This document shows, piece after piece, positions 1-45,901 of a stretch of 45,901 nt of DNA. Source of the stretch: an uncultured virus (IMG/VR IMGVR_UViG_3300033753_000202) (lineage: Duplodnaviria; Heunggongvirae; Uroviricota; Caudoviricetes); the IMG/VR virus record IMGVR_UViG_3300033753_000202; one strand, written 5' to 3'. Position 1 is the stretch's first letter; each line of letters begins with the position of its first letter. Both the position numbers and the translations under genes were made by a program. The notes below the pieces were generated by a model that saw only the letters and a program-made list of their open reading frames with translations, searched no databases and was not told where the DNA came from.

Positions 1-1350
1 ATCGATGAAATCCTCAGCCAAATCGCCAAAGCCCAAATTCCGGGGGTATCGGACTACCGGGAGATCACGGACTTGCGTCGAGTTGGTATCGAGGTGGTTT
101 GTTCCAGCAAGAATGCGGTTTCCACAGTGCTTCCGCAACTTCTGAAGAACACCAACCTGCAAATGACCGTTCCGGCGAATATGATGGTCATTGTTCGCGA
201 CCGTCCGAAGTTGGTGGGTATCAAGGACTACATCCACGAGTGGTTGGAATTCCGCAAGGAAGTCGTGCGTCGGGAGCTTACGGCGGAACTTGAAGCGGTC
301 AATTTTGAGATCCCGCGCTACGAACTGTTGGTGGATTTGCTTGGTACCGATTATAAGCGTGAGCGTTTCATGGCGACGTTGTCCAAGCAGGGTACGAAGG
401 AAGCTCGCATGGTGCTTCGGGAGTTCTACCCGGACGCGGACAACGATATCTTCGACTGGATTCTCGGTATGCGGCTGTCCTCACTTGGTGGGGTAGGCAA
501 CAAGGGCGCTCGTCTGGAGCGACTGTATGCGGCGCGGAAGCAACTGGAATATGACCTTGAGCACATTCCGCAGTATATCGCTAAGCAACTGCGCGAGTAC
601 AATCAGAAATACAGCTTCCCACGCAAAACCACGGTTTCCGACGTCGACTACACCTTTGAACGTGAAGCTCCGGCGAAGGTTGAACTTCCGGCGATGCCTT
701 GTATTGTGCAACTGGATGGGAAGTTCTTCAAACGCTACAACGTAGACGTCATCACGAAGAACTACGAAGGTATCCGTTGCTCGTCGAAGGACGTTATCTC
801 GATGATCGACACGCACGGTCGACTCTTGCGTGTCAAGGTCGAAGACATCGAACCGGTCTCTGGAAATGGGCGTGGCGTTTATCTGCCGTCCTTCTTGGAG
901 ATTCCCGACGATTTTGAAATCGTTGCGTGCGATGTCATCTCGGACAAAAAAGTAGGTTATGTATACTCCGATGGTTTCGTGTCCGTCTTGGATCTGTCCG
1001 AGTGGGCGGATAGCAAGCGCACCACCCGGATGACGCAGAATGGGGTATCTCCTGAAGCCTATAAGATCATCGCTGAGTTCCCGATTCCGAGCGAGTACTT
1101 GTACGTTGTCACGTCGAAGGGACGTTTTGGTTTCTTCACTGCCAATGAGTTCAAGCACAAGCATCGCACGGCTCGAACCAAGCTGATCAATCTTAAGCCG
1201 GGAGAAGATCTCACTTATGCGTTGCCTGTTTCCGGCGTGGATCTGCTGAAGTTGGTCAGCAACGCGGCGCGTTATATCGACAAGCTCGGGGCACTGGCGG
1301 CGGACGACACCTTCAATACGGAGTATCTCAACACACTGAGCGGGGCTTAA
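1..1350 (+). CDS. gyrA: Type IIA topoisomerase subunit A (GyrA/ParC-like), C-terminal part; 5' end lies outside the window
   Basis: The frame is open from base 1 (IDEILSQIAKAQIPGVSDYREITDLRRVGIEV), resembling the GyrA 'gIsdlrDesdr.GmrivI' segment. It also has 'LLKNTNLQMT..NMMVI..RPKLVGIKDYIHEWLEFRKEVV', 'ILGMRLSSL', 'KYSFPRKT' and degenerate beta-pinwheel repeats. GyrA versus ParC cannot be resolved. Confidence 0.8.
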   Translation: MDEILSQIAKAQIPGVSDYREITDLRRVGIEVVCSSKNAVSTVLPQLLKNTNLQMTVPANMMVIVRDRPKLVGIKDYIHEWLEFRKEVVRRELTAELEAVNFEIPRYELLVDLLGTDYKRERFMATLSKQGTKEARMVLREFYPDADNDIFDWILGMRLSSLGGVGNKGARLERLYAARKQLEYDLEHIPQYIAKQLREYNQKYSFPRKTTVSDVDYTFEREAPAKVELPAMPCIVQLDGKFFKRYNVDVITKNYEGIRCSSKDVISMIDTHGRLLRVKVEDIEPVSGNGRGVYLPSFLEIPDDFEIVACDVISDKKVGYVYSDGFVSVLDLSEWADSKRTTRMTQNGVSPEAYKIIAEFPIPSEYLYVVTSKGRFGFFTANEFKHKHRTARTKLINLKPGEDLTYALPVSGVDLLKLVSNAARYIDKLGALAADDTFNTEYLNTLSGA

Positions 1351-1363
1351 TGCCCCGCTTTTT
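1339..1363 (+). terminator. Intrinsic terminator overlapping the gyrA-like stop
   Basis: AGCGGGGC-ttaat-GCCCCGCT followed by TTTT. Confidence 0.65.
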
Positions 1364-1376
1364 GGGAGGTTCCGGT

Positions 1377-2180
1377 ATGAAAATCAGTTTGAGGTATGGG
1401 ACACCGCCAAGGGATTTCGAGGCATCGGTCGACTCTATTGTACCCAAGCCGATTGAGTTGGCGGTGGAGAACGTTGGGGATTTTCCGTCGCAAGCTCGGT
1501 CGTTGCAGTTTTATGTCCAGTCCCTGAAGTACCTCTTTCAAGGGGTAACCAACATGGTGACAGGGAATTTGCTCCGTCTTTCGGTCGAGAAGAGTTGGTT
1601 CGGTAAGATCGAACGTGACGGCTTCTCAATCAAGTGGGAACCCCGGATCGACAAGTTTTTCGTGGTGGTTTATTCGCTTGGTGACGCTAAGTTGGATGAG
1701 GACATGTACGTTGCCGATGTGGTGTATTCCACGAAAAGTGGTCGTATTGATACACAACCTGTATGGCTCAACTCGCTCTTGAACCAGAAGAGCAAAGCCG
1801 CCGCGATGGAGAAGGAGCATCTGACGGGCGCTATCGCCGCTGTCACTAAGCACATTGGCTCTTGCTCTTTGGTGTACACGAACGACAAGTTGACGGTCAT
1901 TGACCGTCGTCGGAAGAAGCAGATTCAAGTGGAAGACATTCCTTCGGATGAAGTGTACGTCTTGGTGCGTCTTATCTATCGGATTTTGAGTAAAGGACTG
2001 CATCAGGGGGTCTTCTTTGTTAACGGTCGTTATTACTCTGACAACGTTATCAATGCCTTGGTGGACTTGTCGCGTTTTATCTACGGAGACTGCTTCATCT
2101 TCCTGTACAACTTGTCGGCGGACAGCCGTGTGGATCGTGCAAAATTCGTACTACCGAATCTGGAGTTGAGTTCCTCTTAA
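1377..2180 (+). CDS. Hypothetical protein (~267 aa)
   Basis: ORF 1350..2180; GGGAGG precedes the ATG at 1377 (MKISLRYG), which is the likelier start. No recognisable motif. Confidence 0.7.
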   Translation: MKISLRYGTPPRDFEASVDSIVPKPIELAVENVGDFPSQARSLQFYVQSLKYLFQGVTNMVTGNLLRLSVEKSWFGKIERDGFSIKWEPRIDKFFVVVYSLGDAKLDEDMYVADVVYSTKSGRIDTQPVWLNSLLNQKSKAAAMEKEHLTGAIAAVTKHIGSCSLVYTNDKLTVIDRRRKKQIQVEDIPSDEVYVLVRLIYRILSKGLHQGVFFVNGRYYSDNVINALVDLSRFIYGDCFIFLYNLSADSRVDRAKFVLPNLELSSS

Positions 2181-2206
2181 GCCCCGGAATCCTTCGGGGC
2201 TTTTTT
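2179..2206 (+). terminator. Intrinsic terminator
   Basis: AAGCCCCGGA-atcc-TTCGGGGCTT then a T-run. Confidence 0.75.
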
Positions 2207-2216
2207 CTTTCCTCTT

Positions 2217-2245
2217 TTGACTGTTGATCGGACGTTTGGCATACT
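2217..2245 (+). promoter_or_regulatory. sigmaA-type promoter for the helicase gene
   Basis: TTGACT-17 nt-CATACT with extended -10 TG. Confidence 0.6.
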
Positions 2246-2279
2246 GGTAGCTTTCACTTCTATTGTTGGGGGTAGCTGA

Positions 2280-4394
2280 ATGTCTGATCAAGCATCTTTC
2301 TTTATCGATGGTTCCTCTCACGGGATTCCTCATATGACACCTTCTTCATCGCAAGGTGTACCTAATCCACTTCAGCCCGCGCAAGGCGCTTCTCCGGTCG
2401 CTCCGGCTCCGGGAGTGGTTCAAGGCGATCCTGCGGTTTCTGCGCCCGTTCAGGCGGCGCAAATGCCCGGACAGCCCCTTCAGTCGGCTCCTTCCGGTTT
2501 CGCTCCGGCTCCGGGCGTTCCCGGCGCTCCTGCCGCGCCCGCTTCGGGAACGCCGTCTTTTGCGGCTTATTCGCTTACGGACAATCTGTCCAATGAGCAG
2601 ATCATTTTTGCTGGGGTTTACTGCGACGATCATGAACTGTTCCGTTCCCGTCGTGCTAAATTCAACACCATGTTTCCTAACACGCGGGATATGTTCACGA
2701 ACGAGTGGGCGGTTTTTGCGATTCTGCTGAAGGAGTATCCGAAAATCATTCCAACGGAGCGCTTTTTGGAGTTGTTCATGCGTACCAATCAAGCCAAACT
2801 TCGGAATCATAAGCAGATTGATTACTCTGCCTATCGAATGGGGGACAGTGATCCCTATGCGGAGTTTACGGCGGTCGTGATCAATACCCTTCGCGAGCTT
2901 AAAGGTCTTCGCATCTCCGAGTCGGACTTTGAAATGGCGCTCGAGATGTATAAAATGGAGTACCTCTCTCGCGAGAGTATTCAAGTCCTCGAAGAAGCCG
3001 TCACGATTATTTCTGAAGGGGTAAGTCGGGGACGCAGAGTTTCGGCGGGGTATGAAGACATGCGTCGTATGCTGAATCAGCGATTTTCGTATCTTGACAA
3101 TATCAATGCTAAGAGTACGCGTCGCGGTATCATTACTTACGGAGCTAATGATGAGAGTGAGGACAATTCCGGGAAAGTCAAGCTCGTCTCGACTTTTGGT
3201 ATCCAACTTCTCGATCAGTATGTTGGGGGTATTTACGAAGGCGATATGGTGTCGATTTTGGCTCCGGCGAAAGGATGTAAAACTCGTTTTGTTACGAGTA
3301 TCATTCATCACGCTATTGTTAATGGCGTTGACGTAGCCGTATGGCCAGTTGAAAACGGACCGAAAAACTTCGAAGCGTTACTTCGTGCAAGGCACTTCAA
3401 CTGGTTGTATAACCGAAACGTGGAAACTGCCCATAAGAAGATTTATCTCGACTCCGACATGATTCGTAAAGGTGATCTTTCTGGGGAGCTGGAGAAGAAG
3501 GAACTCGCTTCGTGGAACGATCTCAAAACTAATAAGAACTATGGTCGTTTCGTGGTCATTGATGAAAACTTCTTGTTGGAGAGTTTTCTCGACACTATTC
3601 AACTGGCGATTGAAACTGTCGGTGCAAAGCTCATCGCGGTGGACTATTTGCAGTTGATTCAGTCGTCCACCAACATTCAAAAGAATGAGCGCATCGCGGC
3701 GGCGTACATTCAAATGCTTCAGTTTTTGAAGCAAAAGAGTATCGCTGGTATTTTCCCCGGTCAGCTTAAGCAAACGGTGGTTTCAAACTTGGGCGGAAAA
3801 TCGGTGGATGAGTTGGCGGAAATGGAAATGCGTGACTCCGCTGGTGAGTCTTACGAGGTCATCAAAACGCCGGACGTTAACCTTGCTTTGTACGGTACGG
3901 TTTCCGATATTCGTCGGGGTAGTATGAAACTGCTCTCCATTCCTTCTCGGAACATCGCTCCGTTCCATCCGATTGACTTGCATGTCGAGGCGGGAACTTG
4001 CACGTTCCGTAGCATTCAGAAGGATGACGCTCTGCTTACGCTTGATGGGCTTCTGCCGAAGCAAGTGGAACCCGCCCAACCTGCGGCTCCTGCGGTAGTC
4101 AGTGCGGTTCCTGCTTCGCTTGGAGGTGTAGCACCTTCGGTAGCGGTCAATCCGCTTGCGTCGATCCCCGCAACGGCACCTGTTGGGGTAAATGCTCCGG
4201 GCGTTCCCGCCCCGGTAGCGGCACCAATCTCTCCGAATGATGGGGTACCTGTTTCTGAGTTGGGTGGGGAAGCGACTGAAAGTGATCTTGGCGGTGACTT
4301 CCCAGAGGACGATTACGATCCCGAAATGTATGGGGACGATGGGGAATACGAGGTTTTCGAAGACGGGGATGACAACTATGACGAAGACGAGTAA
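2280..4394 (+). CDS. dnaB: DnaB-like (SF4) replicative helicase with Pro/Ala-rich termini and an acidic tail
   Basis: 'LDQYVGGIYEGDMVSILAPAKGCKT' (Walker A region), 'IAVDYLQLI' (Walker B), 'PGQLKQ' and 'MRDSAGESYEVIKTPD' match SF4 helicase motifs H1-H4. Confidence 0.8.
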   Translation: MSDQASFFIDGSSHGIPHMTPSSSQGVPNPLQPAQGASPVAPAPGVVQGDPAVSAPVQAAQMPGQPLQSAPSGFAPAPGVPGAPAAPASGTPSFAAYSLTDNLSNEQIIFAGVYCDDHELFRSRRAKFNTMFPNTRDMFTNEWAVFAILLKEYPKIIPTERFLELFMRTNQAKLRNHKQIDYSAYRMGDSDPYAEFTAVVINTLRELKGLRISESDFEMALEMYKMEYLSRESIQVLEEAVTIISEGVSRGRRVSAGYEDMRRMLNQRFSYLDNINAKSTRRGIITYGANDESEDNSGKVKLVSTFGIQLLDQYVGGIYEGDMVSILAPAKGCKTRFVTSIIHHAIVNGVDVAVWPVENGPKNFEALLRARHFNWLYNRNVETAHKKIYLDSDMIRKGDLSGELEKKELASWNDLKTNKNYGRFVVIDENFLLESFLDTIQLAIETVGAKLIAVDYLQLIQSSTNIQKNERIAAAYIQMLQFLKQKSIAGIFPGQLKQTVVSNLGGKSVDELAEMEMRDSAGESYEVIKTPDVNLALYGTVSDIRRGSMKLLSIPSRNIAPFHPIDLHVEAGTCTFRSIQKDDALLTLDGLLPKQVEPAQPAAPAVVSAVPASLGGVAPSVAVNPLASIPATAPVGVNAPGVPAPVAAPISPNDGVPVSELGGEATESDLGGDFPEDDYDPEMYGDDGEYEVFEDGDDNYDEDE

Positions 4395-4423
4395 GAAATA
4401 CACTTAGCGTTTTTCTTTTGGGA

Positions 4424-4453
4424 GGACAACTCATTTTTGAGTTGTCTTTTCTT
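4424..4453 (+). terminator. Intrinsic terminator
   Basis: GGACAACTCA-tttt-TGAGTTGTCT then a T-rich tract. Confidence 0.7.
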
Positions 4454-4566
4454 TGCGAAATCTGTCCGCTCTTGGTCAATTTAGGCGGGAAAATAGGATT
4501 ACTTTATGTCCTGTTCGGAGTGTGGAATACGTTGGTTCAGTTGATTTATTTTCGGAGGTGTTATAC

Positions 4567-5712
4567 TTGAAGTTCTCGTTAAAGGACAGTAGAATTCTCA
4601 TTTCACTAGGGGTACTCCTACTGATCTTGGTCTTTGTAGGAGTGTATATCTTGGTACCGGACTTTCGTTCTGGTATTTCGGCAACGATGTCTCAACTTTT
4701 CGGGAATACGTCATCTGCCGTTTCGGATATCGCTACGAAGCCGAGTCAGTCTAATTTTGATCCTTCGACTGGGCAGTATCAGTCAATTATCACGGAGGAA
4801 GGTGACTTGGACTTCTTTAATAATCCTGAGCAACAGCCCGTTGAAGAGGAGCATGACCCTTATGCCGATTATCCGGTGACAGCTAGAATCATTTCGCTTA
4901 ATACGGAAGGTGCGTCTTACCTGATTCAAGACGGAATTTATTGGGTGTTGGTTGACACCTCCACAGGTCGGGATACGGACAAAATTCTCTCGGTGTTGAA
5001 AGAGAATCAGGTCAAATCACTTCGTTACCTCATCATTACTAATTACAATACGTTTGCTCTTGGTGGGGCGGAAAAGATTCTGGATAGTATCCCTGTAGAT
5101 TTTATTGTGGTGGCGGAAAGTGTGGTCACCGAAGAGGAAGGTAAGCCGCTCTTACGGTACTTTGACCAGAAGCGACTGTTGTATACGGTCGGCTCCAAGC
5201 ATGGGCGCTACCCCTTGGATCAGGGGGTACTCGAAGTCCATCAAACACATGAGAAAGGATCGCTCATGTTGACGTATTATCATGGTGCGTCTAAAATTGT
5301 CTTCACGGGCGATCTTATGAGGATCGATGAGGATCGACTTGATCTTCTGCCGACTTACATCGATGCTTTGTATCTCAGCTATCGTCGTCCTGAGTACGAA
5401 ATTCCTTCTGGGTTGATCGATCACACCAAGCCGAAAGCACTTTACGCTACAGGTACGGGAAGTCTTACTGCAACGAAGAAGTTGCTCAGCACTTTGACCA
5501 CGGCGGAGTATGCAAACCATTTCTACAATCTTGATAGTACGTTGGAATTTGTACTTAACGGCTACACGATTAAGGCTCCTAAGCCCAATGTGGTAGTTCC
5601 TCAAGAAACGCCTTCCACAGAAGAAGGTCAATCCTCGAACGCGGACGCAGGGGTAAATTCGGATGCTGAGTCTGATTCCGTGTCCAGTGACAATAGCGAC
5701 TCACAGGGGTAA
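4567..5712 (+). CDS. Membrane-anchored ComEC/Rec2-type metallo-beta-lactamase-fold protein with degenerate metal sites
   Basis: GGAGGTG RBS before the TTG at 4567 and an N-terminal TM helix. 'VLVDTSTG', 'LIITNYNTFALGG', 'SLMLTYYHGASKIVFTGDL' and 'IDALYLSYRR' align in order with the ComEC MBL motifs. Confidence 0.65.
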   Translation: MKFSLKDSRILISLGVLLLILVFVGVYILVPDFRSGISATMSQLFGNTSSAVSDIATKPSQSNFDPSTGQYQSIITEEGDLDFFNNPEQQPVEEEHDPYADYPVTARIISLNTEGASYLIQDGIYWVLVDTSTGRDTDKILSVLKENQVKSLRYLIITNYNTFALGGAEKILDSIPVDFIVVAESVVTEEEGKPLLRYFDQKRLLYTVGSKHGRYPLDQGVLEVHQTHEKGSLMLTYYHGASKIVFTGDLMRIDEDRLDLLPTYIDALYLSYRRPEYEIPSGLIDHTKPKALYATGTGSLTATKKLLSTLTTAEYANHFYNLDSTLEFVLNGYTIKAPKPNVVVPQETPSTEEGQSSNADAGVNSDAESDSVSSDNSDSQG

Positions 5713-5799
5713 TTTTTCCTTTTGTAATATCAATGTCACGCTTCTTTCTGAGGAGTGGCATTTATATTAAGCAAATCCAATCAGGAGAGGTGCAGTACA

Positions 5800-6525
5800 A
5801 TGTCCAAGGATAAAGAACGCGAGCAACGCGAAATGCGGGAAAAGCAACTTGAGAGAATCGTTTCCAGTCGGGAAGACAAGCTGTCGGAAGGTGCGAAGTT
5901 GGCGATCATGCTCTGTTCGTCAGCGTTCCATTATGGCGGCGCATGGGGGTTCCTTCGTAGCACGAAGGAGAATTTCCGCGAGTGCATTGAGGAGTTTCGC
6001 AAGGAGCATCAAAACGTTCGGTTGTTCAAGGTGTCGAATGGCGCTTTGATTCACGCCAACGAGAACTTCCTCGCCAACGCGGTCAATGCGCTTCTTCCGG
6101 GAGCCATTACGCAGGATTTCGCTCAAAAGGCGATCAAGCGTCGTCAGGCGGAAACGGAGCGCTTCATCAAGTTCATTCAAAACGTGCTGGACGGCAAGGA
6201 GCAAGTGACCAAGAAGAACGGCATATACGAACTTCAGCTTGGGGTATACTCGATCAACGAGACCAACTCCATCCGTCTCAATGGGGTAGAGTATCCGGCT
6301 TACAAGTTGACGTTGTTTGAAGCTCTCGACATCATCGATAAGCTCAGTAAGCAACAAAACCTTGTTTCCGAGGTTTATGCCGTCACGGAAGACAATCAGC
6401 GTGTTTTCGCTCCGGTTTTTGCCGCTATGACCAATAGCAAAGGTGTGCAAGCGGTCTATCGCGGGCTTTCGATTTCGGAGACGGACACCGGGGTATTCGT
6501 CACGGTGCATCTGCGTCGTAAGTAA
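5800..6525 (+). CDS. Hypothetical protein (~241 aa)
   Basis: ORF 5755..6525; RBS GGAGAGGTG before the ATG at 5800. Confidence 0.75.
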   Translation: MSKDKEREQREMREKQLERIVSSREDKLSEGAKLAIMLCSSAFHYGGAWGFLRSTKENFRECIEEFRKEHQNVRLFKVSNGALIHANENFLANAVNALLPGAITQDFAQKAIKRRQAETERFIKFIQNVLDGKEQVTKKNGIYELQLGVYSINETNSIRLNGVEYPAYKLTLFEALDIIDKLSKQQNLVSEVYAVTEDNQRVFAPVFAAMTNSKGVQAVYRGLSISETDTGVFVTVHLRRK

Positions 6526-6583
6526 TCCTTTGGTTTTGCACCATTTACGTCCGGTTCTTTCTCCTTCGCTGTTCATATATTTT

Positions 6584-6618
6584 TAGGACACATTTTTCGG
6601 AATGTGTCCTACTTTTTT
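6584..6618 (+). terminator. Intrinsic terminator
   Basis: TAGGACACATT-tttcgg-AATGTGTCCTA then CTTTTTT. Confidence 0.75.
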
Positions 6619-6645
6619 GACTTAAAAATGGATTCCCTTTATAAT
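6617..6645 (+). promoter_or_regulatory. Near-consensus sigmaA promoter
   Basis: TTGACT-17 nt-TATAAT upstream of ORF 6692. Confidence 0.8.
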
Positions 6646-6691
6646 AACTAGGTTCTTTCGGATTGACTAGTTATTTTGAGGAGGGATTAAA

Positions 6692-7075
6692 GTGGCGAAG
6701 ACAGTGACTAGAGAAGAGTCCGATCTCAACATGTTGTTGACCTTGGATTACAGTCATATGACCGAACGTCAGTTGCAGGGGGTAATTTTCCGTCTCACGA
6801 CAGAACTTCAACGGGCTGAACAGCAGTTGAAGGAGGCACGTACTCAATACGTTCGAACGTTTGAGGAGTTCGACTCCAATGTGGATTTGCTCTGCGCTCA
6901 TCTGAATCATTATGACGCGCTTACTGAGTCGTATCGGGCGGAAGTGATGCGCATTCATACACGCTTAGAAGAACTCAAAGAGCGTCGCCGTCAGCTTGTG
7001 GCGGAATACCGTCAGCGCAAATTTGTCCAGCGCTTCTTGCGGCATTTTCAGCGGCAGGACGTCTCGATGTTGTAA
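6692..7075 (+). CDS. Small coiled-coil hypothetical protein
   Basis: GAGGAGG RBS, GTG start, heptad-like L/E/R/Q-rich sequence and its own promoter. Confidence 0.75.
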   Translation: MAKTVTREESDLNMLLTLDYSHMTERQLQGVIFRLTTELQRAEQQLKEARTQYVRTFEEFDSNVDLLCAHLNHYDALTESYRAEVMRIHTRLEELKERRRQLVAEYRQRKFVQRFLRHFQRQDVSML

Positions 7076-7189
7076 GTTGTCCGCTTTTTAAGCGCTCTCA
7101 TTCTTCGGTTTCTTGTCCTTTCTCTTTAAGGCGTGTTCTGCAACTTTGACTTTGCTTCTTCGCCATGAACTCGTCTTCTCCTATATAAG

Positions 7190-7212
7190 AAGCCCTTTTC
7201 CGGGGCTTTTTT
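7190..7212 (+). terminator. Intrinsic terminator
   Basis: AAGCCC...GGGCTT hairpin followed by a T-run. Confidence 0.55.
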
Positions 7213-7245
7213 GTTTCCTCCCTTCTTTCTTTTTCAATCCTTTAT

Positions 7246-8352: not shown

Positions 8353-8354
8353 CG

Positions 8355-38563: not shown

Positions 38564-38605
38564 ACGGAAGTTTATACTCAGCGTCTAAGTCTGGTCGGTT
38601 AAGGA

Positions 38606-39145: not shown

Positions 39146-39235
39146 AATTTAAGACTTTGAAAGTTTCTTATCCTGTTTCCGTTCGTGTTTATAACGGTTA
39201 CGTTGCTTTTTGTGTAAATTCATAACAGCAGGGAG

Positions 39236-39667
39236 GTGGGGGTAGTGGAATCGGAAATCGGGTGGTTTTCGAGGATGCTTGTTTCCCTTGGACTTACAGC
39301 TTCTCTTTTAGCTTTGGGAGGAGTTTTGGGGTATGCAGGACGGGGCGTGCTTGTTGACATTGATAATAAACGGGTGACGACACAAGTCATTCAGCAACAA
39401 CGTGAGATTCTTAGTTACGAGAATATCTATGTTACAGCGGACGATGTCTATTTGGCGGTTATTCGGTACAATCGGGTACTTCCTCTTAGTATTCAGTATT
39501 ATAGCGGAAGTTCAAAAGTGTATTTGAATTTAACCCCGGACTCGAATGCTACGATGTGGACGAAAGATTATTTGCGCCCCTATCTCACGGATACCTTGTA
39601 TCGCGCTCGCTTGAGTCGGGGTATGGCAAATGAGGTTACGGGGATTGTTTTTGATTTGGTTAACTAA
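39236..39667 (+). CDS. Minor pilin-like protein
   Basis: N-terminal hydrophobic helix; 'LSYENIYVTADDVYLAVIR'; the C-terminal 'VTGIVF' is shared with 37814 and 38606. Confidence 0.6.
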   Translation: MGVVESEIGWFSRMLVSLGLTASLLALGGVLGYAGRGVLVDIDNKRVTTQVIQQQREILSYENIYVTADDVYLAVIRYNRVLPLSIQYYSGSSKVYLNLTPDSNATMWTKDYLRPYLTDTLYRARLSRGMANEVTGIVFDLVN

Positions 39668-39672
39668 GGGAG

Positions 39673-40158
39673 GTGACCTTCATGGATGAAGGTTTGAATA
39701 AATCGCTTTGGTTGGCGATATCGGTGGTTGCGGCGGCGGCTTTGATCAGTATTATTATCTTCACGGTAAGTATCGGGAATCAGGTGAAGTATGAATCGAT
39801 GTCGCTGTTTGGTTCGATTCATAACGCTATCGCTGATGGGTACATCAAGGACATCGCCCTTGGTGAACTGGACATGGAAATGCCCGCCGCGACTGCGTAT
39901 TCGATTTTGACGACCTACTCTGGTACCATTACTACTTCTGTCAATGCGAGGACTGGTCGTATTGTTGATCTTCAGGTATCTCCTACTGATTTGATGGACG
40001 ATCTTGGGGGTAGAGTGCAGTTGGAGTTTGGTAAGGTGATCAACGGCAACTTCTACGTGATCATTCACGATGAAGATTGTATGTGGGAAACAGGTTTCTG
40101 TACTTGTGCTTTTGCCGCCACTGCCAATAATTTTAAGAACACGTATGGAGTTGAGTGA
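39673..40158 (+). CDS. Minor pilin-like protein with a Cys-rich C-terminus
   Basis: 'MDEGLNKSLWLAISVVAAAALISII' parallels the 37814 N-terminus; 'DCMWETGFCTC'. Confidence 0.6.
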   Translation: MTFMDEGLNKSLWLAISVVAAAALISIIIFTVSIGNQVKYESMSLFGSIHNAIADGYIKDIALGELDMEMPAATAYSILTTYSGTITTSVNARTGRIVDLQVSPTDLMDDLGGRVQLEFGKVINGNFYVIIHDEDCMWETGFCTCAFAATANNFKNTYGVE

Positions 40159-40592
40159 CGATGAACTTCATAGATGATATTACTGATTTTCTAGTCTTTG
40201 TTGTGTTATTCGCGGCGTTTTCTACTATCGGGTTAGAGTTGGTACTTCCTGAGTATTATGATAGTGTTCGTATTTCTCAGGAATCCATTACCGATAAAAC
40301 TGCCCCAACAGCTTTGGGGTATGTGGAGGAGACTAATTATCGCGGGGAGTTGAGCTTTGCGGAAGTTCTTATTATGACGCAAATTCAAGACATCTCGATT
40401 CCAGCTCCGAAGCGTTATGCGGTTGGGAATACGGTAGTGGAGATTGGTAGTGAATATCGGGCGGAGTTGGATTTGGTATGGCGCGAGGTTATGCCGCGTC
40501 TTGCTACGACTCCAGCGCAAGCCAATCAAAAATTCTATGTGCATTATAATCCGACACAAGATCGGTATGACATCAATACGGTTGCTCCGTAA
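40155..40592 (+). CDS. Minor pilin-like membrane protein
   Basis: Single N-terminal TM, overlapping start, 'YRGELSFAEVL'. Confidence 0.55.
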   Translation: MTMNFIDDITDFLVFVVLFAAFSTIGLELVLPEYYDSVRISQESITDKTAPTALGYVEETNYRGELSFAEVLIMTQIQDISIPAPKRYAVGNTVVEIGSEYRAELDLVWREVMPRLATTPAQANQKFYVHYNPTQDRYDINTVAP

Positions 40593-40609
40593 TAGGAGGG
40601 GGTGTTCCC

Positions 40610-41059
40610 TTGTTTGACTATGTGAATCGCGTTGTTATGGTAATTCTTATTTTCGTCATGTTGGTTGTACCGCCAGTTCTCTTTTCATATGTTCGGGCGG
40701 AGATGAAAGCTGAGCGAATCGCGCTCAATGAGGTCGAGCTTTTTCTTGATAAGGTAACGGACAAAGGCACCATTACGGATCAGGACTTGAATGACCTTTA
40801 TCTCGGTATCGCGGCTACTGGGGGTATCTACGATGTAAAGGTTTCTCGCTTGATCCGTATTTCTACTTTGACTGAAGACGGTCGTATTCGGACGATTTAT
40901 CTCGATGAAAATTACGAGAATACTCGTATGAATATGGGCGACCTTGTCAAGGTTACGGTGACAGAGATAGGGGTATCCCCGGCGAAGCGTTTGCTCTGGC
41001 ATGTTTTGCGAATTGATGAGGGGAAATTTGAGTTCAGCTTGGTTGCGGCTGTTCGTTAA
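40610..41059 (+). CDS. TadE/F-like minor pilin protein
   Basis: N-terminal TM; 'FLDKVTDKGTIT' and 'MNMGDLVKVTVT' resemble Bacillota TadE-like proteins. Confidence 0.55.
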   Translation: MFDYVNRVVMVILIFVMLVVPPVLFSYVRAEMKAERIALNEVELFLDKVTDKGTITDQDLNDLYLGIAATGGIYDVKVSRLIRISTLTEDGRIRTIYLDENYENTRMNMGDLVKVTVTEIGVSPAKRLLWHVLRIDEGKFEFSLVAAVR

Positions 41060-41074
41060 AGGTGGTGACATAGC

Positions 41075-42088
41075 TTGAAAAACTGGACAGTCATCGCTTC
41101 TTTTATGGGTTTTCTAATGTTCCTTTTTATGTGCGGGACTTTCTTTCATGAAATTCGCACAAATGAGCGTCAGTTTAATGAACTGCATTTCAAGAAAGTT
41201 GTGGACTACGCAACCGAAGCGTCCTTTCTTTCCACCCTTGAAGGGGGTAACTTGGGGATTAGTTATCTCGATTTGCAGAACGTTAAAATTGACCCGACGA
41301 ACGCCTTGGATGTCTTCCGTTCAGTCATCGCTCTTTCTTATGATATGGCGCTTAGTGAACAAACTTTTACTGCGCTAGATAACTACATCACCACAGCGGT
41401 GTTAGTGGCGGCGGATGGGTATTATATCGCCACTTTGGAGGATCACGTCGAGCATACAGCGCAGGGGGATGTTACTTATAAGCGGTTGAAGTGGGGGTTA
41501 AAGCGACCTTTCACGATCAAGTATGGGAATTACGACACCGTTGCGTATAACTTAAGTAATGAATCTTGGGTTTTGGTGCGTCAGAATCCTTCTAATCCTT
41601 CGCAAGCTACGGTTTATCGCGGTGAATCTTTTAACGCCTTGCGTATTGATCATGGGATTGTTGCTACTCGTGACGCTATCAATAAGGCGGTCAATGAACG
41701 GATTACACGAGATGCCAATGCGGTAGCTCAATTTCGTAATAAGGACTTGAACCGTTACACCTTAAAGGACTTCATTTACCTTCCTTCCGAAGTAACCAGC
41801 TCGGGGGTAAACCCGGTCTTTAAGCCCTCCTTGATTTATGCTCTTTCTGACGTTGACTTTGCGGGAAGCCAAAAGCTCAATATTCGCAGTGTTGGTGGTT
41901 TTACGCTTACTAAGAAGGTTCGCGTAATTGGTTTTCAGGAGAATGGGGTAGACTACTATGCTTTTGAGGGGCAACTTCCTCAGCATATTGTGGATAGTGC
42001 GCGTTTCTTCTATAACTCTACGGAGGAAGCGGCGCTTGCCGGGTTTAAGCCGCATTTGGAGTATCTGAAGAACCCAATAAACTACTAG
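41075..42088 (+). CDS. TadG-like larger pilin-associated protein
   Basis: N-terminal TM followed by 'KKVVDYATEAS' (TadG-like 'a.D.Aa.aa'); last gene of the pilin cluster. Confidence 0.5.
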   Translation: MKNWTVIASFMGFLMFLFMCGTFFHEIRTNERQFNELHFKKVVDYATEASFLSTLEGGNLGISYLDLQNVKIDPTNALDVFRSVIALSYDMALSEQTFTALDNYITTAVLVAADGYYIATLEDHVEHTAQGDVTYKRLKWGLKRPFTIKYGNYDTVAYNLSNESWVLVRQNPSNPSQATVYRGESFNALRIDHGIVATRDAINKAVNERITRDANAVAQFRNKDLNRYTLKDFIYLPSEVTSSGVNPVFKPSLIYALSDVDFAGSQKLNIRSVGGFTLTKKVRVIGFQENGVDYYAFEGQLPQHIVDSARFFYNSTEEAALAGFKPHLEYLKNPINY

Positions 42089-42119
42089 GAATACCAGTCT
42101 TTCCTGCTTAACAAAATGC

Positions 42120-42148
42120 TTGATTTTCCTATCTTTTTGTGTTAAACT
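42120..42148 (+). promoter_or_regulatory. sigmaA-type promoter
   Basis: TTGATT-17 nt-TAAACT with extended -10 TG. Confidence 0.6.
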
Positions 42149-42195
42149 AGGGGTTAAGGAAGTACCCTTCCTACCCTTATTGGAGTTACCATAGA

Positions 42196-42252
42196 CCGAA
42201 CAGAGAGAAAGTACGTCGTTTCTTACGATGTACTTTCTCTTTGTGTTTTCGG
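42196..42252 (+). terminator. Long hairpin (terminator or attenuator) ~50 nt downstream of the promoter
   Basis: CAGAGAGAAAGTACGTCGT-ttctt-ACGATGTACTTTCTCTTTG, extended by CCGAA/TTCGG. Confidence 0.65.
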
Positions 42253-42298
42253 AGCTAATCTTATATTGAAGCAAATTTGTTGAAAAGGAGAGATTGGG

Positions 42299-42745
42299 AT
42301 GGCGGTCGCGCATCCACCATTGGGTTTTTTCTACGCACAAGGGACTGTGCCGGATCGACGTGGTTTCGCTTACCTGACTTTGAAGCGGGATTTGGAGCGT
42401 GGAGTACATCGTCTCCCGGATTACGCCTACATGCGGCATTGGGGTTCGTCTCGGGCTTCGTTGCATTTTGCCTTGCATTTGCGAAATATCCTTGGACATC
42501 TGTTCCAAGGAAAGCAAGCTACTATGACGTATCGGAATGGAGATTACCGACTCTCGGTAGTCACGGTCGGCAACTTGGAGATCGTCTACACGGGAGTAGG
42601 GTCGGGGTACTTTGGGGAAGGTTCCCGCACGGCTTATGATATCCTCAAGCTTATGGGTTTCCCGGAGAAAAAGCTTGAAAAGATTTGGACGCAGGAGAAT
42701 TTCCGCATTACAGTAGGAGGTGGTCGTCGTGGCAAAGCGGGTTAA
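42299..42745 (+). CDS. Hypothetical protein
   Basis: AAAGGAG RBS, ATG start. Confidence 0.6.
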   Translation: MAVAHPPLGFFYAQGTVPDRRGFAYLTLKRDLERGVHRLPDYAYMRHWGSSRASLHFALHLRNILGHLFQGKQATMTYRNGDYRLSVVTVGNLEIVYTGVGSGYFGEGSRTAYDILKLMGFPEKKLEKIWTQENFRITVGGGRRGKAG

Positions 42746-42983
42746 TGGGTTTGATATGTATTATCAGTTCTCGGATTGGTTGAACGGGGCGACAGAAGCG
42801 GAGAAACGGCAGTTTGTCAATGCCGCTCTGGGGGATCATCGTGAGTTGCAGAATGATCTGTTCTACCTGTTTCTCGGTTGTGTTCAGGGTTGGGCGCGAG
42901 CAGGAAGGGTAGGTAATTTCGACGCACGGAATGCGCATGCGGTGCAAGCGAGTACGGTGATCGCACAAACACTGAAATTGTAG
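42729..42983 (+). CDS. Small hypothetical protein
   Basis: AGGAGG RBS favours the GTG at 42729. Confidence 0.6.
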   Translation: MAKRVNGFDMYYQFSDWLNGATEAEKRQFVNAALGDHRELQNDLFYLFLGCVQGWARAGRVGNFDARNAHAVQASTVIAQTLKL

Positions 42984-43065
42984 GACTTACCCCTAATATA
43001 CTTTATGATGGGTCTTGTGACACAGCTCACATAAGGTATATTTTATCTAGCTGGAGGGGTAGTTC

Positions 43066-43620
43066 ATGAAAAAGTCTCGCCAAAAGCTCTTGGCGCTTGG
43101 GGTAGTTGCACTTAGCTTGGTGATCGCTGTAGGTATCGCAGTTGCAGGGTCGTGGTGGGGTAAGGATGAGGAACAGGTTGCTGAGGGGAGCTATGAAGCC
43201 TTCGATCCGAATAGCAAACCGTCAACTGATAGTGAATCGGTTCCATTCGATCTTGCGGAGCTTCGCAAGCAAGGGAAGCCGATCCTCATTGATTTTACTG
43301 CCACTTGGTGTATCCCTTGTAAAACGTTCAATCCGATCTTGAATGAGGTCAAAGAAGAGTACGCGGATAAGGTTATTATCGAGCTGGTGGACGTCGACAA
43401 GTATCGCAGTTTTGCTACCTATTACCCCCTGAGGGGTATTCCGTCGCAACTCTTGTATAATAGCGACGGGGAACCGTTTATTCCGCAAAATGCGGAGGTT
43501 AGCGGTTTGTTTGGTTTTCGGACTTTCCGTTCGGGGGAAGAGATTGTGACTCTGCATGAAGGAACTCTTTCGAAGGAAAGTTTGTTGGTACTTCTTGAGC
43601 GAATGGGGTTAGAGTTATGA
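43066..43620 (+). CDS. Membrane-anchored extracytoplasmic thioredoxin-family protein
   Basis: N-terminal TM, 'LIDFTATWCIPCK' (CxxC) and cis-Pro 'GIPS'. Confidence 0.9.
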   Translation: MKKSRQKLLALGVVALSLVIAVGIAVAGSWWGKDEEQVAEGSYEAFDPNSKPSTDSESVPFDLAELRKQGKPILIDFTATWCIPCKTFNPILNEVKEEYADKVIIELVDVDKYRSFATYYPLRGIPSQLLYNSDGEPFIPQNAEVSGLFGFRTFRSGEEIVTLHEGTLSKESLLVLLERMGLEL

Positions 43621-44330
43621 TTACGTCTTGGTTGGAGCAACTTTCCCTGTTCTTCTATCAATCTTCCCCATTCGCTTTTGTTATCGCTGTGGTAGCGGGG
43701 GTGCTTACGGCGTTCACGCCTTGTTCGCTTTCTACGGTTCCGCTCGTTCTCGCCTATTTTGGTGGGACTTCGGAGCGTTCCACGCGGTCTACGTTATCCA
43801 TCGTCGCTTTTTTGACGATGGGTTTCGTGCTTTTTAGCACCGTTTTGGGTGTGGTGATCGCGCTTACGGGTCGAATGTTAACAATTCAATGGAACATGCC
43901 CTACGTTTACCTTGTCTTGGGGATACTGCTTGTGCTTATGGCGGTTCAGACGTGGGGTATTTGGGAAATTATCCCTTCGACTTACCTGCAGTCGAAGGTC
44001 AAACGTAAGGATCGCGTCGGTGCTTTTTTGGTTGGTGGATTAAGCGCTGTCTTTTCGTCACCCTGTACGACCCCGGTAACGGTAGCCTTGTTAGCGGGGG
44101 TATCGTTGCAAGGGGATTGGTTAGCGGGGGCGGGGTACTTAGCTTTATACGCACTTGGACATGCGGTGGTTTATCCTACTGTGGCGTTTGCCGCGAAGGG
44201 GGTTAAACGACTTCAGCGCAGTCCGGTGATGCAAAAGTATGTGTTCTCTTTGAATCTCGTTCTTGGTCTTCTATTTTTCGCTTTTGGTACTTATTTAGTC
44301 TCTTTGTTTTTCACGACACGTTTGTTATAA
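43617..44330 (+). CDS. ccdA: CcdA/DsbD-type transmembrane thiol-disulfide reductase
   Basis: About six TMs with the two conserved 'PC' motifs, 'AFTPCSL..VP' and 'SSPCTTPV'. Confidence 0.88.
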   Translation: MITSWLEQLSLFFYQSSPFAFVIAVVAGVLTAFTPCSLSTVPLVLAYFGGTSERSTRSTLSIVAFLTMGFVLFSTVLGVVIALTGRMLTIQWNMPYVYLVLGILLVLMAVQTWGIWEIIPSTYLQSKVKRKDRVGAFLVGGLSAVFSSPCTTPVTVALLAGVSLQGDWLAGAGYLALYALGHAVVYPTVAFAAKGVKRLQRSPVMQKYVFSLNLVLGLLFFAFGTYLVSLFFTTRLL

Positions 44331-44490
44331 TATTAGCGACTGGAAGAATCGAGATTCAATATATTGAGAAATGATGTGACTAATGATGTAACTTTTTAGT
44401 AGGTACATGGTTCGTTTGGAGGGGAGTAATATGTTTAATAAAAGTCAGCGATGGTTCAAGAAGGAAATGTAACGAATTGAAAAAGAACAA

Positions 44491-45273
44491 ATGAATCGAC
44501 AGGAGGTTCGTAGTTACATGGAAGATAAACATTTCAAGGGGCATTATTCGGGCGACAAATTAAGTCTAAGTCCGTTTGCGAAGTTTCTAAGAGTTGTAAT
44601 GTTCATAATTATTGGTGTTTACTGCTTTCTTGGCTTTTTAGGTGCTACTATTGATGAGCATAAAGTATCTGCTTTCGTCTTGATTCTGGTGGGCTTAAAT
44701 ATGATTCTTTTATTATTTGGTTTGATAATTCCTGGTCTGGTTATCAGAGGTTATAATAGAACGAGGAGGAAAGTTCTTGCTGTTTACGGTTCATCTTTTA
44801 TCTTACTTATTATTATGTTTATCGTAACCGCCCCTTCAAATATAGCACCTACCATTGACATTAACCAAAAAGCCGTTCCGGTTACGACTACCCAGAACGC
44901 GTCGGAGAGTATGGAGGAATATAAAAGTTCTGCCAAACATATTCAATACATCGAATTGGCAAGAAACCCAGATAACTACAAGACCAAGCGAGTTGTTTAT
45001 ACAGGTAAAGTTATTCAAACGCTTGAGTTAGGAATAGGAAACAATGTTGTTTTGTTGGTCAACGTTACTAAAGGTGAATACGGGCTGTGGGATGATACGG
45101 TTTATGTAAATTATCGTAGGTCAGATGGGGAAAGTCGAATTCTTGAAAATGATATTATTACGTTATGGGGTACTGTTAAAGGGCTAAAAACCTACAAGTC
45201 TGTATTGGGAGCCAAAATTACCATACCCGAAATTGATGCGAAGTACATTACAATTGATGGCCACGAAGAGTAA
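44491..45273 (+). CDS. AT-rich membrane protein with 3 TMs and a C-terminal extracytoplasmic OB-fold-like (TcdC-like) domain
   Basis: 'YIELARNPDNYK..RVVYTGKVIQ...ILENDIITLWGTVKG..TY.SVLG..ITIP'. An alternative start at ATG 44518 has an AGGAGG RBS. Confidence 0.7.
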   Translation: MNRQEVRSYMEDKHFKGHYSGDKLSLSPFAKFLRVVMFIIIGVYCFLGFLGATIDEHKVSAFVLILVGLNMILLLFGLIIPGLVIRGYNRTRRKVLAVYGSSFILLIIMFIVTAPSNIAPTIDINQKAVPVTTTQNASESMEEYKSSAKHIQYIELARNPDNYKTKRVVYTGKVIQTLELGIGNNVVLLVNVTKGEYGLWDDTVYVNYRRSDGESRILENDIITLWGTVKGLKTYKSVLGAKITIPEIDAKYITIDGHEE

Positions 45274-45434
45274 AATTCCCTATGGAAAAAGAATCCATAG
45301 TTGCGGAAGGAATTTGCGGCTTTATGGCGAATGTTGAAAAAGTTGCGGAGGACGATGGCATTAGGTTCTCAAAAATTAAGAAAGGACTTCTTTCACGGTT
45401 ACTATATAATCAATAAGCTAAGGAGCGATTCATC

Positions 45435-45901
45435 ATGAGTAAAGTTGTCAAACGTCTGTTCTGCACCATCCTTCTGTTGACGCTGGTCATCAGCCCCGTT
45501 TCGGCTTTCGCCGCCGACACCAAATCGTCGGGCGAATCCTCCAACTCAACGCATCAAATCATCGACGGCTACAGCTACTCCAACGAGGCGGTTTACATCC
45601 TCGACGAGATCAACCGCTATCGTCGTGACATGGGTCTGCCTGAGGTGAAACTCGATCCGGTCATTACGGAAGCCGCTCAAAATCATGCTGATTATCTTGA
45701 AAAGAATGATACGACAGGGCATGCTGAATTGAAAGGAAAGCCCGGTTTTACTGGGGCGAGTCATACGGAACGTATAAAGGCTGTGGGTGGAAATAAATAT
45801 TTGTTGGACAATCAGTATTTTCTTCCTCAAGAAGTTATTTCTTATAACTCTTTAGATAGAGTTGTCGAGTCTTTGATTTATTTGCCATATCATCGTGCGC
45901 C
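45435..45901 (+). CDS. Secreted CAP/SCP-domain protein, truncated by the window end (absent from the ORF track)
   Basis: AAGGAG RBS; MSKVVKRLFCTILLLTLVISPVSAFA signal; 'LDEINRYRRDMGLPEVKLDPVITEAAQNHADYL...GHAE...GFTG...ERI' and a terminal 'PYHRA'. Confidence 0.85.
   Translation, partial: MSKVVKRLFCTILLLTLVISPVSAFAADTKSSGESSNSTHQIIDGYSYSNEAVYILDEINRYRRDMGLPEVKLDPVITEAAQNHADYLEKNDTTGHAELKGKPGFTGASHTERIKAVGGNKYLLDNQYFLPQEVISYNSLDRVVESLIYLPYHRA

Follow-up and report, generated by a model that had tools for sequence, protein, structure and literature searches.

Which reader could lead a mobile element to repeat one short word all along one of its strands? The question is raised by a 45,901-nt stretch of DNA (the window, by which we mean the whole stretch analysed) that is part of a large plasmid-like element, with a parent contig of 229 kb. 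The lineage of this element, giant and plasmid-like, is known from compost and bioreactor bacteria. The hexamer GGGGTA recurs on the + strand of the window, and the original prediction proposed it as a candidate priming site or, alternatively, as a Chi-like signal, a KOPS-like signal or a nucleoid-protein site. We find that GGGGTA is a positively selected signal of the element lineage, read on the + strand.

Enrichment, strictness and spacing of GGGGTA

The window holds 126 copies of the word, distributed very unequally between the strands (95% polar):

43..45172, + strand: GGGGTA array, 120 dispersed sites with one in about 382 bases, in all three frames and in intergenic DNA
5209..43428, - strand: six reverse copies, at 5209, 7740, 13422, 13733, 42988 and 43423

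The predicted array is borne out, its tally of about 118 + sites falling 2 short of the true number, and the six positions claimed for TACCCC are all exact. Base composition predicts 15.7 copies on the + strand and 6.2 on the - strand; the excess on + is 7.6-fold. In 100 dinucleotide-preserving shuffles the two strands together carry 18.09 ± 4.11 copies (maximum 30), and none of the 100 reaches 126. It had been argued that the word is not one codon pair, and a codon-preserving shuffle had been proposed as a check. Indeed, the enrichment persists under this control: synonymous-codon shuffling within genes (n=300) leaves 20.7 ± 4.1 copies (maximum 33) versus the 110 observed in genes, which fall in three reading frames (60/29/21), with 10 more sites outside or at the edge of gene calls. 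Gly-Val dipeptides, 60 of 115 of which are written GGGGTA, outnumber Val-Gly dipeptides (63) in the window proteins, the expectation being 77.4 each. The shuffle result and the spelling of Gly-Val mean that selection targets the DNA word itself, not codon use; whichever its reader, it has shaped about half of the element's Gly-Val codon pairs. On the - strand the same shuffle predicts 5.0 ± 2.3 copies in genes and 3 are observed. The minus-strand copies are at the neutral level, neither enriched nor depleted, and this combination fits a reader that profits from sites on one strand, while those on the other make no difference to it.

The word is strict. All 18 one-mismatch neighbours of GGGGTA have z values from -3.5 to +2.2, none being enriched, and GGGGTC, GGGGTG and GGGGTT are each under expectation. 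The 7- and 8-mers that contain GGGGTA occur as often as the hexamer frequency predicts, and the flanking positions carry at most 0.11 bit. The unit is therefore exactly the GGGGTA hexamer.

The sites are also evenly spread, with 11-15 + sites in each of nine 5-kb bins. The coefficient of variation (CV) of their spacing is 0.70, compared to 0.99 ± 0.09 under random placement (0 of 5000 trials as low); the widest gap measures 1156, against 2030 at random (p 0.0004). The same holds when the choice is restricted to the 237 positions where GGGGTA is synonymously possible, of which 110 are occupied: random choice among them gives a CV of 1.05 ± 0.10 against 0.72 observed (0/5000), and the possible positions left unused lie closer to the nearest used site (median 96 versus 202 nt, p 9e-07). 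Coverage by sites is under selection. Discontinuous synthesis needs regular start sites, which this even spacing matches. The word has no preferred location within genes and no flanking or wider context. None of the 36 complete genes tested is devoid of sites, whereas spacing-preserving shifts leave 3.3 ± 1.4 genes empty and only 1.5% of 6543 shifts leave none. This could reflect a requirement per gene, possibly at the RNA level, but the result is fragile, the test having omitted three small ORFs at 13.3-14.1 kb, two of which are without a + strand site. Between two strains about 2.4% apart, 4 of 336 site columns are substituted versus 505 of 21244 columns elsewhere, a deficit that is not significant (Fisher p 0.20), and 4 sites are lost where 7.5 losses are expected.

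Genes of the window and inheritance of the word

All the genes of the window lie on the + strand and none on the - strand, so that the polarity of GGGGTA coincides with gene direction throughout. Every one of the 22 bins has a positive GC skew, and T exceeds A on the + strand. The prediction that the + strand is the lagging-strand template is compatible with the positive skew and with the gene orientation; the skew and the excess of T would also be expected from transcription alone, which weakens them as arguments for priming. Pieces of the window region are present in an RNA library. The genes that bear on the identity of a reader are the following:

2280..4394, + strand: DnaB-family replicative helicase of 704 aa with N- and C-terminal extensions (DnaB_C at residues 307-500)
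15285..15869, + strand: stand-alone DnaG-type CHC2 zinc-binding-domain protein of 194 aa (PF01807, E 1.3e-13), its C-terminal part being helical and of unknown fold
15887..16936, + strand: RuvC-type Holliday-junction resolvase, extended by an additional C-terminal domain, adjoining the CHC2 gene, identified by its residues and fold match
30990..37435, + strand: Tad-like pilus/transfer module (SAF-domain protein, two small ORFs, TadA-like ATPase, 653-aa ORF)
33312-35474, + strand: the ATPase of this module, of the TadA/VirB11 secretion family by domain matches

The CHC2 protein matches PDB 1d0q (E 8.7e-08; fold match with TM 0.67 on the target). Its homologues comprise 25 matches, 10 of them full-length (184-195 aa; P0078-P0087), some on contigs of 195-341 kb. 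Judging from an alignment of the window protein with nine of these ten, the stand-alone zinc-binding domain is conserved across the element family, and the protein is a candidate sequence reader of GGGGTA. In the helicase, residues ~100-320 correspond to the N-terminal ~220 residues in the majority of 57 homologues, a good number of them ~480-500 aa long; residues 1-307 and 501-704 match no Pfam family at E <= 5, and the protein has no fused primase domain. In the RuvC-type protein, D60 and D203 are invariant and E114, D115 and D200 nearly invariant among 17 sequences. Its model (pLDDT 79) has 1hjr, 4ld0 and 4ktw as top fold matches (E 2e-07 to 5e-07, TM 0.66-0.71 on the target), which rules out a TOPRIM primase identity for this neighbour of CHC2. 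The proposal that the element uses its own helicase/CHC2 system is therefore sustained in part: both proteins are encoded, but CHC2 is a zinc-binding domain only, and a TOPRIM or AEP catalytic domain is found in none of the 38 proteins of the window, which covers 46 kb of the parent contig.

The Tad-like module, whose gene order is also found on Cohnella and Thermobacillus plasmids, served as the marker by which relatives were located. L007, a distant relative of 32% GC, carries the core GGGTA 73:0 where 14.6 are expected. In 11 orthologue pairs, only 4 of 26 window GGGTA sites are at a conserved aligned position, and in the tree the enriched elements lie outside a 12-member clade (99% support) that is mostly without the word. 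From these comparisons of related sequences, the trait tracks the element lineage, not GC content, elements of 48% and 32% GC having the GGGTA core in common. The original prediction had asked whether the host chromosome lacks the enrichment, and the host proxies examined point in this direction. None of 401 Clostridia genomes is enriched; by approximate values read by eye from a table, the densest has ~0.9 copies per kb (both strands) versus 2.7 per kb in the window, and the top ratio of GGGGTA to the reversed control word is ~1.9. The bin of one relative, G001, has 362 copies versus 421 for the control word; there, GGGTA stands at 0.3-1.1 times expectation on five chromosome-like contigs and at 2.0-2.4 times on two element-like contigs. 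G002 is likewise without GGGGTA enrichment.

Possible readers of GGGGTA

We tentatively favour the view that GGGGTA is a priming site on the single-stranded + strand, read via the conserved stand-alone DnaG-type zinc finger. In the mechanism that we consider most likely, RNA primers would begin at GGGGTA while the + strand is single-stranded, whether it serves as lagging-strand template in the wake of the element's DnaB-type helicase or is the transferred strand. Read 3' to 5' by a primase, the site would have A as the untranscribed "cryptic" base and yield the primer pppACCCC. The stand-alone finger would recognise the sequence in trans for a catalytic primase domain that may be the host's or encoded elsewhere on the element. 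Since chance alone gives a six-base site only about every 3-4 kb on the + strand, the element has accumulated sites, mostly by synonymous changes, evenly and to about one every 380 bases. That this amounts to a hard-wired priming code, in which the finger retargets the primase to a strict hexamer, the starts of Okazaki fragments or of the transferred strand are legible in the sequence and related lineages use GGGTA, is doubtful.

Some features of known primases are in keeping with a priming role. The zinc-binding domain of DnaG sets template specificity and can work in trans on the polymerase domain of another subunit, as the excerpt of PMC2978363 has it, and the CHC2 protein may act in this way. 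The comparison with T7 in the original prediction is correct: there, 5'-GGGTC templates pppACCC, and the cryptic 3' base is recognised by the zinc finger (PMC11109968, in excerpt). The sites of the T7 gp4 primase share a 5'-GTC core (GGGTC, TGGTC and GTGTC for pppACCC, pppACCA and pppACAC), and GGGGTA would resemble them as a G-rich template in which T is followed by a single untranscribed 3' base. Moreover, T7 is also a replicon with all genes co-directional, and the site density of the element (1 per 382 nt) is near that of T7 (161 on +, 1 per 248 nt). The 3' TA recalls the CTA/TTA sites of Firmicute DnaG (PMC5204125, in excerpt).

Other features do not fit. As a precedent T7 fails, its sites being present 161 times on + and 159 times on -, with ~110 per strand expected in sum (+:-, GGGTC 39:55, TGGTC 79:62, GTGTC 43:42). 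These are degenerate pentamers near chance and equal on both strands, whereas the element has a strict, enriched and polar hexamer, so that its pattern was not predicted by T7; 120:6 departs from the behaviour of known primase sites, which are frequent and show little strand bias. The cryptic base would be A in the element and is C in T7, and the missing catalytic domain counts against priming too. The strand logic of the prediction is sound and the word is real. We know of no primase that needs so strict a specificity (12 bits), and a literature search found no primase system with a comparable site array. In the excerpt of PMC5204125, characterised bacterial DnaG sites start with two pyrimidines, the C. 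difficile enzyme favouring CCC, which would make GTA atypical for a DnaG-type zinc finger. The site in every complete gene tested and the non-significant substitution deficit also argue against priming.

Chi sites are 5-8 nt long, and their polarity in E. coli is about 75%; to our knowledge no Chi equals GGGGTA in density, polarity and evenness of spacing. Like Chi, GGGGTA is a short, over-represented, asymmetric word on a G-rich leading strand (PMC3384302, in excerpt). A helicase-nuclease, host AddAB/RecBCD or the element's own, might enter a one-ended break (a collapsed fork or a rolling-circle tail) and read the word on the 3'-ending strand, the switch from degradation to recombination protecting the element. 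The word has the orientation of the G-rich strand, even coverage would reduce the stretch lost before rescue, and recombination genes are nearby: besides the resolvase, a relative of the SPP1 gene 32 ATPase, an NAD-dependent ligase and a metallo-beta-lactamase-fold protein. We nevertheless consider such a role unlikely, because a Chi read by the host belongs to the host chromosome and should mark it, while no sampled genome has the excess; because a core common to elements of such different GC points to a reader carried along by the element; because the window shows no gene for a helicase-nuclease; and because the enrichment and polarity are above those of Chi in E. coli. Guides for FtsK- or SpoIIIE-type translocases (KOPS, SRS and other architecture-imparting sequences) are likewise G-rich, highly skewed and dispersed. 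At 120/126 = 0.95, the skew of GGGGTA is above the roughly 0.8 towards the leading strand that is expected of such guides, and it lies in or above their genome-wide range of 0.79-0.91 (PMC3384302 Table 1, in excerpt), and the element has transfer-type genes, so that a translocase might be loaded or oriented by the word for segregation or transfer. This is very unlikely: the hexamer occurs once per 0.38 kb, not as an octamer per roughly 10-40 kb, and is some 30 times denser than the octamers at 1 per 10-22 kb in that table; reverse sites are no rarer than expected (6 vs 6.2), although they would send a motor the wrong way; and no FtsK/SpoIIIE family member is found among the window proteins, the ATPase of the Tad-like module being of a secretion family.

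The coincidence of polarity with gene direction also raises the prospect of a signal in RNA. GGGGTA resembles a Shine-Dalgarno sequence, and GGGGUA in every mRNA might be used once or more per gene by an RNA-binding factor, by an antitermination or pause factor acting on the non-template strand, or by the ribosome. The absence of empty genes, four sites that reach into the ribosome-binding region, 5-11 nt ahead of a start codon, and the RNA-library pieces are in favour of this. We judge it quite unlikely, given the fragility of the per-gene result and the lack of preferred place or context; canonical Shine-Dalgarno-type words are absent from the top words of the shuffle screen, and ribosome pairing does not explain the strict final TA. 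A further, unlikely alternative is another strand-specific reader: a nucleoid or single-strand-binding protein of the element, a strand-specific modification or nicking enzyme, or a self-recognition mark by which the element escapes its own nuclease or that of a partner. Strict six-base specificity suits a dedicated DNA-binding protein, even spacing suits an array, and Pfam assigns no family at E <= 0.001 to 18 of the 38 window proteins. On the other side, no methyltransferase or nicking-enzyme family is found in the window, nothing supports such a reader positively, and a protein binding double-stranded DNA would not require a single orientation.

An element-borne word among dispersed words

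Dispersed polar words that give order to an entire replicon are known mainly from signals such as Chi and KOPS, which are host-wide, sparse and only moderately enriched. The word described here is a mobile element's own. It stands at ~30 times the density of KOPS, with strong polarity and measurable selection on spacing, and it has survived a shift in GC content of the lineage between 48% and 32%. Were it read by a primase, the element would be the first replicon with lagging-strand start sites encoded and visible in the sequence, and a route to study the co-evolution of primase specificity and genome sequence; were it read by a nuclease or a motor, the word would be an element-private Chi or KOPS. 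Under either reading, GGGGTA can be used as a marker that assigns metagenome contigs to the element lineage.

DNA uptake sequences (DUS/USS) are frequent dispersed words too, but occur in both orientations; the one-strandedness of GGGGTA rejects this identity. The Type III enzyme EcoP15I (CAGCAG/CTGCTG) needs inversely oriented sites, and CTGCTG occurs 36:0 in the T7 genome, which thus resembles the element in having a hexamer with strand polarity, complete in T7, in a co-directional genome. The T7 pattern is explained by one orientation missing, whereas in the element the - strand is neutral and the + strand enriched and evenly spaced.

Count, unit and spacing of the hexamer

The 45,901-base window contains 126 copies of the hexamer GGGGTA, 120 on the + strand (the strand given) and 6 on the − strand; the array is a real feature of this DNA. 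Base composition predicts 15.7 copies on + and 6.2 on −, while 18.1±4.1 are expected on both strands together in dinucleotide-preserving shuffles, of which 0/100 reached 126. The six reverse copies located by the original prediction were all recovered, each exactly in its place. The + sites run through the whole window, at 11–15 in each of nine 5-kb bins. GGGGTA is itself the unit, since longer words containing it are as frequent as the hexamer count predicts, information does not exceed 0.11 bit at the twelve flanking positions on either side, and all 18 one-mismatch neighbours lie at or below the codon-shuffle expectation (z −3.5 to +2.2). No trend in composition was found around the sites, out to ±150 nt.

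All plausible genes of the window lie on +, and 110 of the 120 + strand sites fall inside genes, with 60, 29 and 21 in frames 0, 1 and 2, respectively. That the word is not an artefact of coding, as originally proposed, was borne out: within-gene shuffling of synonymous codons leaves 20.7±4.1 copies in genes (33 at most in 300 shuffles) and shuffling of codon order 13.9±3.7. The minus-strand word is at expectation within genes (3 observed, 5.0±2.3 expected). When all hexamers are compared with the codon-shuffle null, GGGGTA stands at z ≈ 19–20 and the runner-up at z ≈ 6.4–6.6. The word also shapes protein sequence: Gly-Val occurs 115 times in the window proteins and Val-Gly 63 times, each being expected 77 times, and 60 of the 115 Gly-Val pairs are spelt GGGGTA, even though Gly is encoded by GGG in 28% of cases and Val by GTA in 18%. 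A mutational origin, for instance from GGGGCA, is unlikely, since GGGGCA shows no deficit (10 observed, 9.2 expected); no neighbour is enriched. A second tier of polar G-rich words is seen window-wide (TGGCGG 54:5, GGCGGT 52:7 and GGCGG, the last at z 6.6 after codon shuffling); these are far weaker than GGGGTA and may reflect Gly-Gly or Trp-Arg codon-pair effects.

The follow-up brought a new finding, namely that the spacing of GGGGTA is selected. The coefficient of variation of the gaps is 0.70, compared with 0.99±0.09 for random placement (0/5000 as low); the largest gap is 1156 nt, where 2030 would be expected at random (p 0.0004), and 6 gaps are shorter than 50 nt, compared with 14.4 expected. 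Nowhere in the window do two consecutive gaps lie within a 30-nt range. The proteins synonymously allow GGGGTA at 237 positions, of which 110 are used, and those left unused are nearer to an occupied site (median 96 vs 202 nt; Mann-Whitney p 9e-07). Drawing 110 positions at random from the 237 gives a coefficient of 1.05±0.10, compared with 0.72 observed (0/5000 as low). The element therefore maintains a site every few hundred bases or so, with little advantage from placing two close together.

There is also a weak hint of a per-gene component: at least one site is present in 36 of 36 complete genes tested, while spacing-preserving shifts leave 3.3±1.4 genes empty and reach zero in 1.5% of 6543 shifts. 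This result is fragile, because three small ORFs at 13.3–14.1 kb were excluded, two of which carry no + strand site when sequence and positions are compared by eye.

The element, its relatives and the inheritance of the word

The window is an identical stretch within a 228,941-base metagenome contig, and a variant of it, with about 2.4% substitutions, lies on another contig, 273,468 bases long. The stretch is present in 20 of 24 runs listed, from 17 studies labelled as metagenomes of compost, bioreactor, phyllosphere or mixed culture; none of the listed runs that carry it comes from an isolate. Variants of window 13000-32999 diverged by about 1.7%, on contigs of up to 139 kb, occur in four runs (X7, X8, X10 and X19) of compost and bioreactor samples from different years; their differences are mostly transitions (C>T accounts for 73 and T>C for 80 of the 350 in X8). 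The genes recognised are the following.

Genes of the window, with coordinates for those located individually
window, +, GyrA/ParC-like topoisomerase subunit, C-terminal part
window, +, DnaB-family helicase
window, +, metallo-β-lactamase-fold protein
window, +, ParM-like actin
10363-13320, +, relative of the SPP1 gene 32 ATPase, 985 aa (phrog_5156, E 1.7e-137)
window, +, EAL phosphodiesterase
15285-15869, +, CHC2 zinc-finger protein, 194 aa
15887-16936, +, RuvC-type resolvase, 349 aa (fold search)
window, +, NAD-dependent ligase
window, +, R2K ATP-grasp protein
20300-28891, +, single ORF of 2863 aa with two ALK/LTK glycine-rich domain matches (PF12810, E 3.4e-58)
window, +, M23 peptidase
window, +, Tad-like module: SAF-domain protein and TadA-like ATPase
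window, +, thioredoxin and DsbD

The 985-aa protein is 36% identical to a protein of Alicyclobacillus phage MMB025 and is called 'ATPase domain protein' in some records. In the 2863-aa ORF, the best PF12810 stretch (residues 1848-2068) is also hit by several PHROG families whose function is unknown. Neither a capsid nor a terminase family was recognised among the window proteins, tRNA and Rfam scans of the window found nothing, and no near-identical DNA was found among plasmids. An origin in the 'gap' at 13.3-14.1 kb was rejected by eye: in that region lie a terminator-like hairpin and small + strand ORFs, and no iterons. The hairpin, at 13537-13567 (+), consists of a perfect inverted repeat of 10 nt with a T-run after it; since it lies between small + strand ORFs and resembles an intrinsic terminator, the co-directional genes do not form one single transcript.

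Large Paenibacillaceae plasmids share the gene order of the Tad-like module, and one of them also has a conjugative coupling protein and relaxase-type genes, which suggests that the module may serve conjugation. The order SAF, two small ORFs, TadA, an ORF of about 690 aa and small ORFs is kept on plasmids of Cohnella herbarum and Thermobacillus composti, and on pTHECO01 the module adjoins a type IV coupling protein and replication-relaxation proteins. The window DNA probably belongs to a large plasmid-like element, likely transferable, of an uncultured Bacillota host.

Relatives were found through TadA; none turned up in the phage collection with the helicase as query, or in viral contigs with the helicase, the SPP1 gene 32-like protein and TadA. 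In each relative, no more than one ORF lies off the common strand, and the GC skew is 0.06–0.37. In L007, with 63% TadA identity and 32% GC, the core GGGTA is found 73:0 (+:−) in 11.7 kb, where 14.6 are expected, GGGGTA 34:0 and GGGTAT 46:0. Each of the two positions before GGGTA in L007 (1-11753) holds C in 0/73 cases (about 7.5 expected at 10% C), and T follows in 46/73, so that the word recognised there may be longer than five bases. Gene order is kept between the window and L007 across 11 orthologue pairs (28–63% identity), with just 4 of 26 window GGGTA sites at the same aligned position; from these alignments, single sites turn over but the density is kept up. Between the window and its closer strain, L006, 52 sites are common, 5 are found in the window alone and 2 in L006 alone, the latter arising at GGGGCA and GGGGTG. 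Substitutions affect 4/336 site columns and 505/21,244 others, about half the rate, a difference that is not significant (Fisher p 0.20). Of the 517 differences between the window and the contigs of four runs, 40 were listed, and one of these 40, when compared by eye with the site positions, falls in a site (16201 G>A, one run); this listing does not serve as a measure of conservation.

Three further metagenome relatives, L001, L008 and L009, have a roughly two-fold GGGTA excess by composition, with polarities of 6:0, 34:3 and 25:1. After codon shuffling, the excess is not among the top words of L008 and L009, and for L008 it is not significant. In a quick TadA tree these three, L007 and the window pair all lie outside one 12-row clade with 99% support, whose members stand at 0.4–1.4x the GGGTA expectation, the short L013 (2.0×) and L020 (1.9×) excepted. 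The Paenibacillaceae plasmids are without such a word (4:1 and 6:2). Polar words proper to other relatives, GTTTA-type and purine-rich, were dismissed, as they reach only z 4-6, no more than the window itself shows through ordinary codon-pair noise. In L008 (JGI24712J26585_10000907, 1-15025), GGTGGT 80:3 and TGGTGG 63:4 in 15 kb probably come from a repetitive Gly-rich gene rather than a dispersed signal.

Host enrichment was looked for in proxy genomes. Among 401 Clostridia species genomes, GGGGTA reaches at most about 0.9 per kb, counting both strands, compared with 2.7 per kb in the window, and in none does it exceed the reversed control word by more than about 1.9 times (table read by eye). 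G001, the bin to which L001 belongs, contains 362 GGGGTA vs 421 control words and 824 GGGTAT vs 893; two element-like contigs in it stand at 2.0–2.4x the GGGTA expectation, and five chromosome-like contigs (92 kb) at 0.3–1.1x on the G-rich strand. In this small sample of genomes, where membership of a bin is no proof of host, the evidence favours a word that belongs to the element rather than to the host.

Candidate readers and rival explanations

The CHC2 protein consists of a DnaG-type zinc-binding domain followed by helices without a recognised fold. A search gave 25 hits, among them 10 full-length members of 184–195 aa (P0078–P0087), some on contigs of 195–341 kb; nine of them were aligned with the window protein, and the stand-alone CHC2 proteins form a conserved family. 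Their C-terminal ~70 residues are helical and matched no solved fold. The adjacent 349-aa protein is not a primase but a RuvC-type resolvase: sequence profiles gave no family and an Atlas look-up a weak RuvC hint, and it was identified by fold search alone. It has a disordered N-terminus of about 50 residues and an extra alpha/beta C-terminal domain (residues ~230-330). Most of 57 DnaB-family homologues, many being ~480–500 aa long, align through their N-terminal ~220 residues with helicase residues ~100–320, and the helicase is therefore without a fused primase. A primase domain hidden in the helicase N-terminus or in the 349-aa protein was thus rejected, and no TOPRIM or AEP domain was found among the window proteins. 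A predicted complex of the CHC2 protein and two helicase N-terminal domains scored 0.22 and 0.11, below the threshold of 0.32, and weighs neither for nor against an interaction.

Three known kinds of polar word share the G-rich-strand orientation and are therefore not told apart by orientation alone. A DnaB-type ring travels on the lagging-strand template. The + strand would be that template, run along by the element's DnaB-type helicase, and GGGGTA might be a priming site, a reading that we rank first and hold tentatively. It is ranked so because regularly distributed sites are what discontinuous synthesis would be expected to require, because the density is close to that of effective T7 primase sites (1 per 248 nt in T7), and because the word has the form of the preferred T7 template, which passages of PMC11109968 give as 5'-GGGTC, yielding pppACCC, with a cryptic 3' base read by the zinc finger. 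The TA at the 3' end of GGGGTA is reminiscent of the Firmicute primase sites CTA and TTA. Further grounds are that the DnaG zinc-binding domain sets template specificity and is able to act in trans, as stated in part of PMC2978363; the longer site of AtTwinkle, a plant relative of the T7 primase, also counts in favour (5'-(G/C)GGA with two cryptic bases, in passages of PMC5737085). Against this ranking, T7's own sites are unpolarised (161:159), no primase catalytic domain was found in the window, and characterised DnaG sites begin with two pyrimidines, according to the passages of PMC5204125 that also give the Firmicute sites.

A Chi-like signal would suit the polarity and the neighbourhood of recombination genes, but no host-wide enrichment was found in the proxy genomes; we consider it unlikely, and give other strand-specific readers the same modest weight. 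A signal acting at the transcript level, in keeping with every window gene lying on + and hinted at by the per-gene result, is somewhat less probable still. Least probable is a KOPS-like guide, which would suit the skew; its density is a misfit, as KOPS/SRS are listed at 1 per 10–22 kb in PMC3384302 Table 1, and no such motor gene was seen in the window.

No earlier description of the word or of a comparable array was found in open-access papers and bioRxiv, and the same literature gave nothing fitting on co-directional extrachromosomal elements or over-represented primase sites. The array belongs to a known kind, the over-represented strand-polar oligomer. Unlike every known one, it follows an element lineage and not any sampled host genome, is far denser, is a strict hexamer, has demonstrably selected spacing and has been retained through a large change in GC content. 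The phage T7 control also gave a count of 36 CTGCTG on + and 0 on −, which we take to be the known one-orientation bias of EcoP15I sites.
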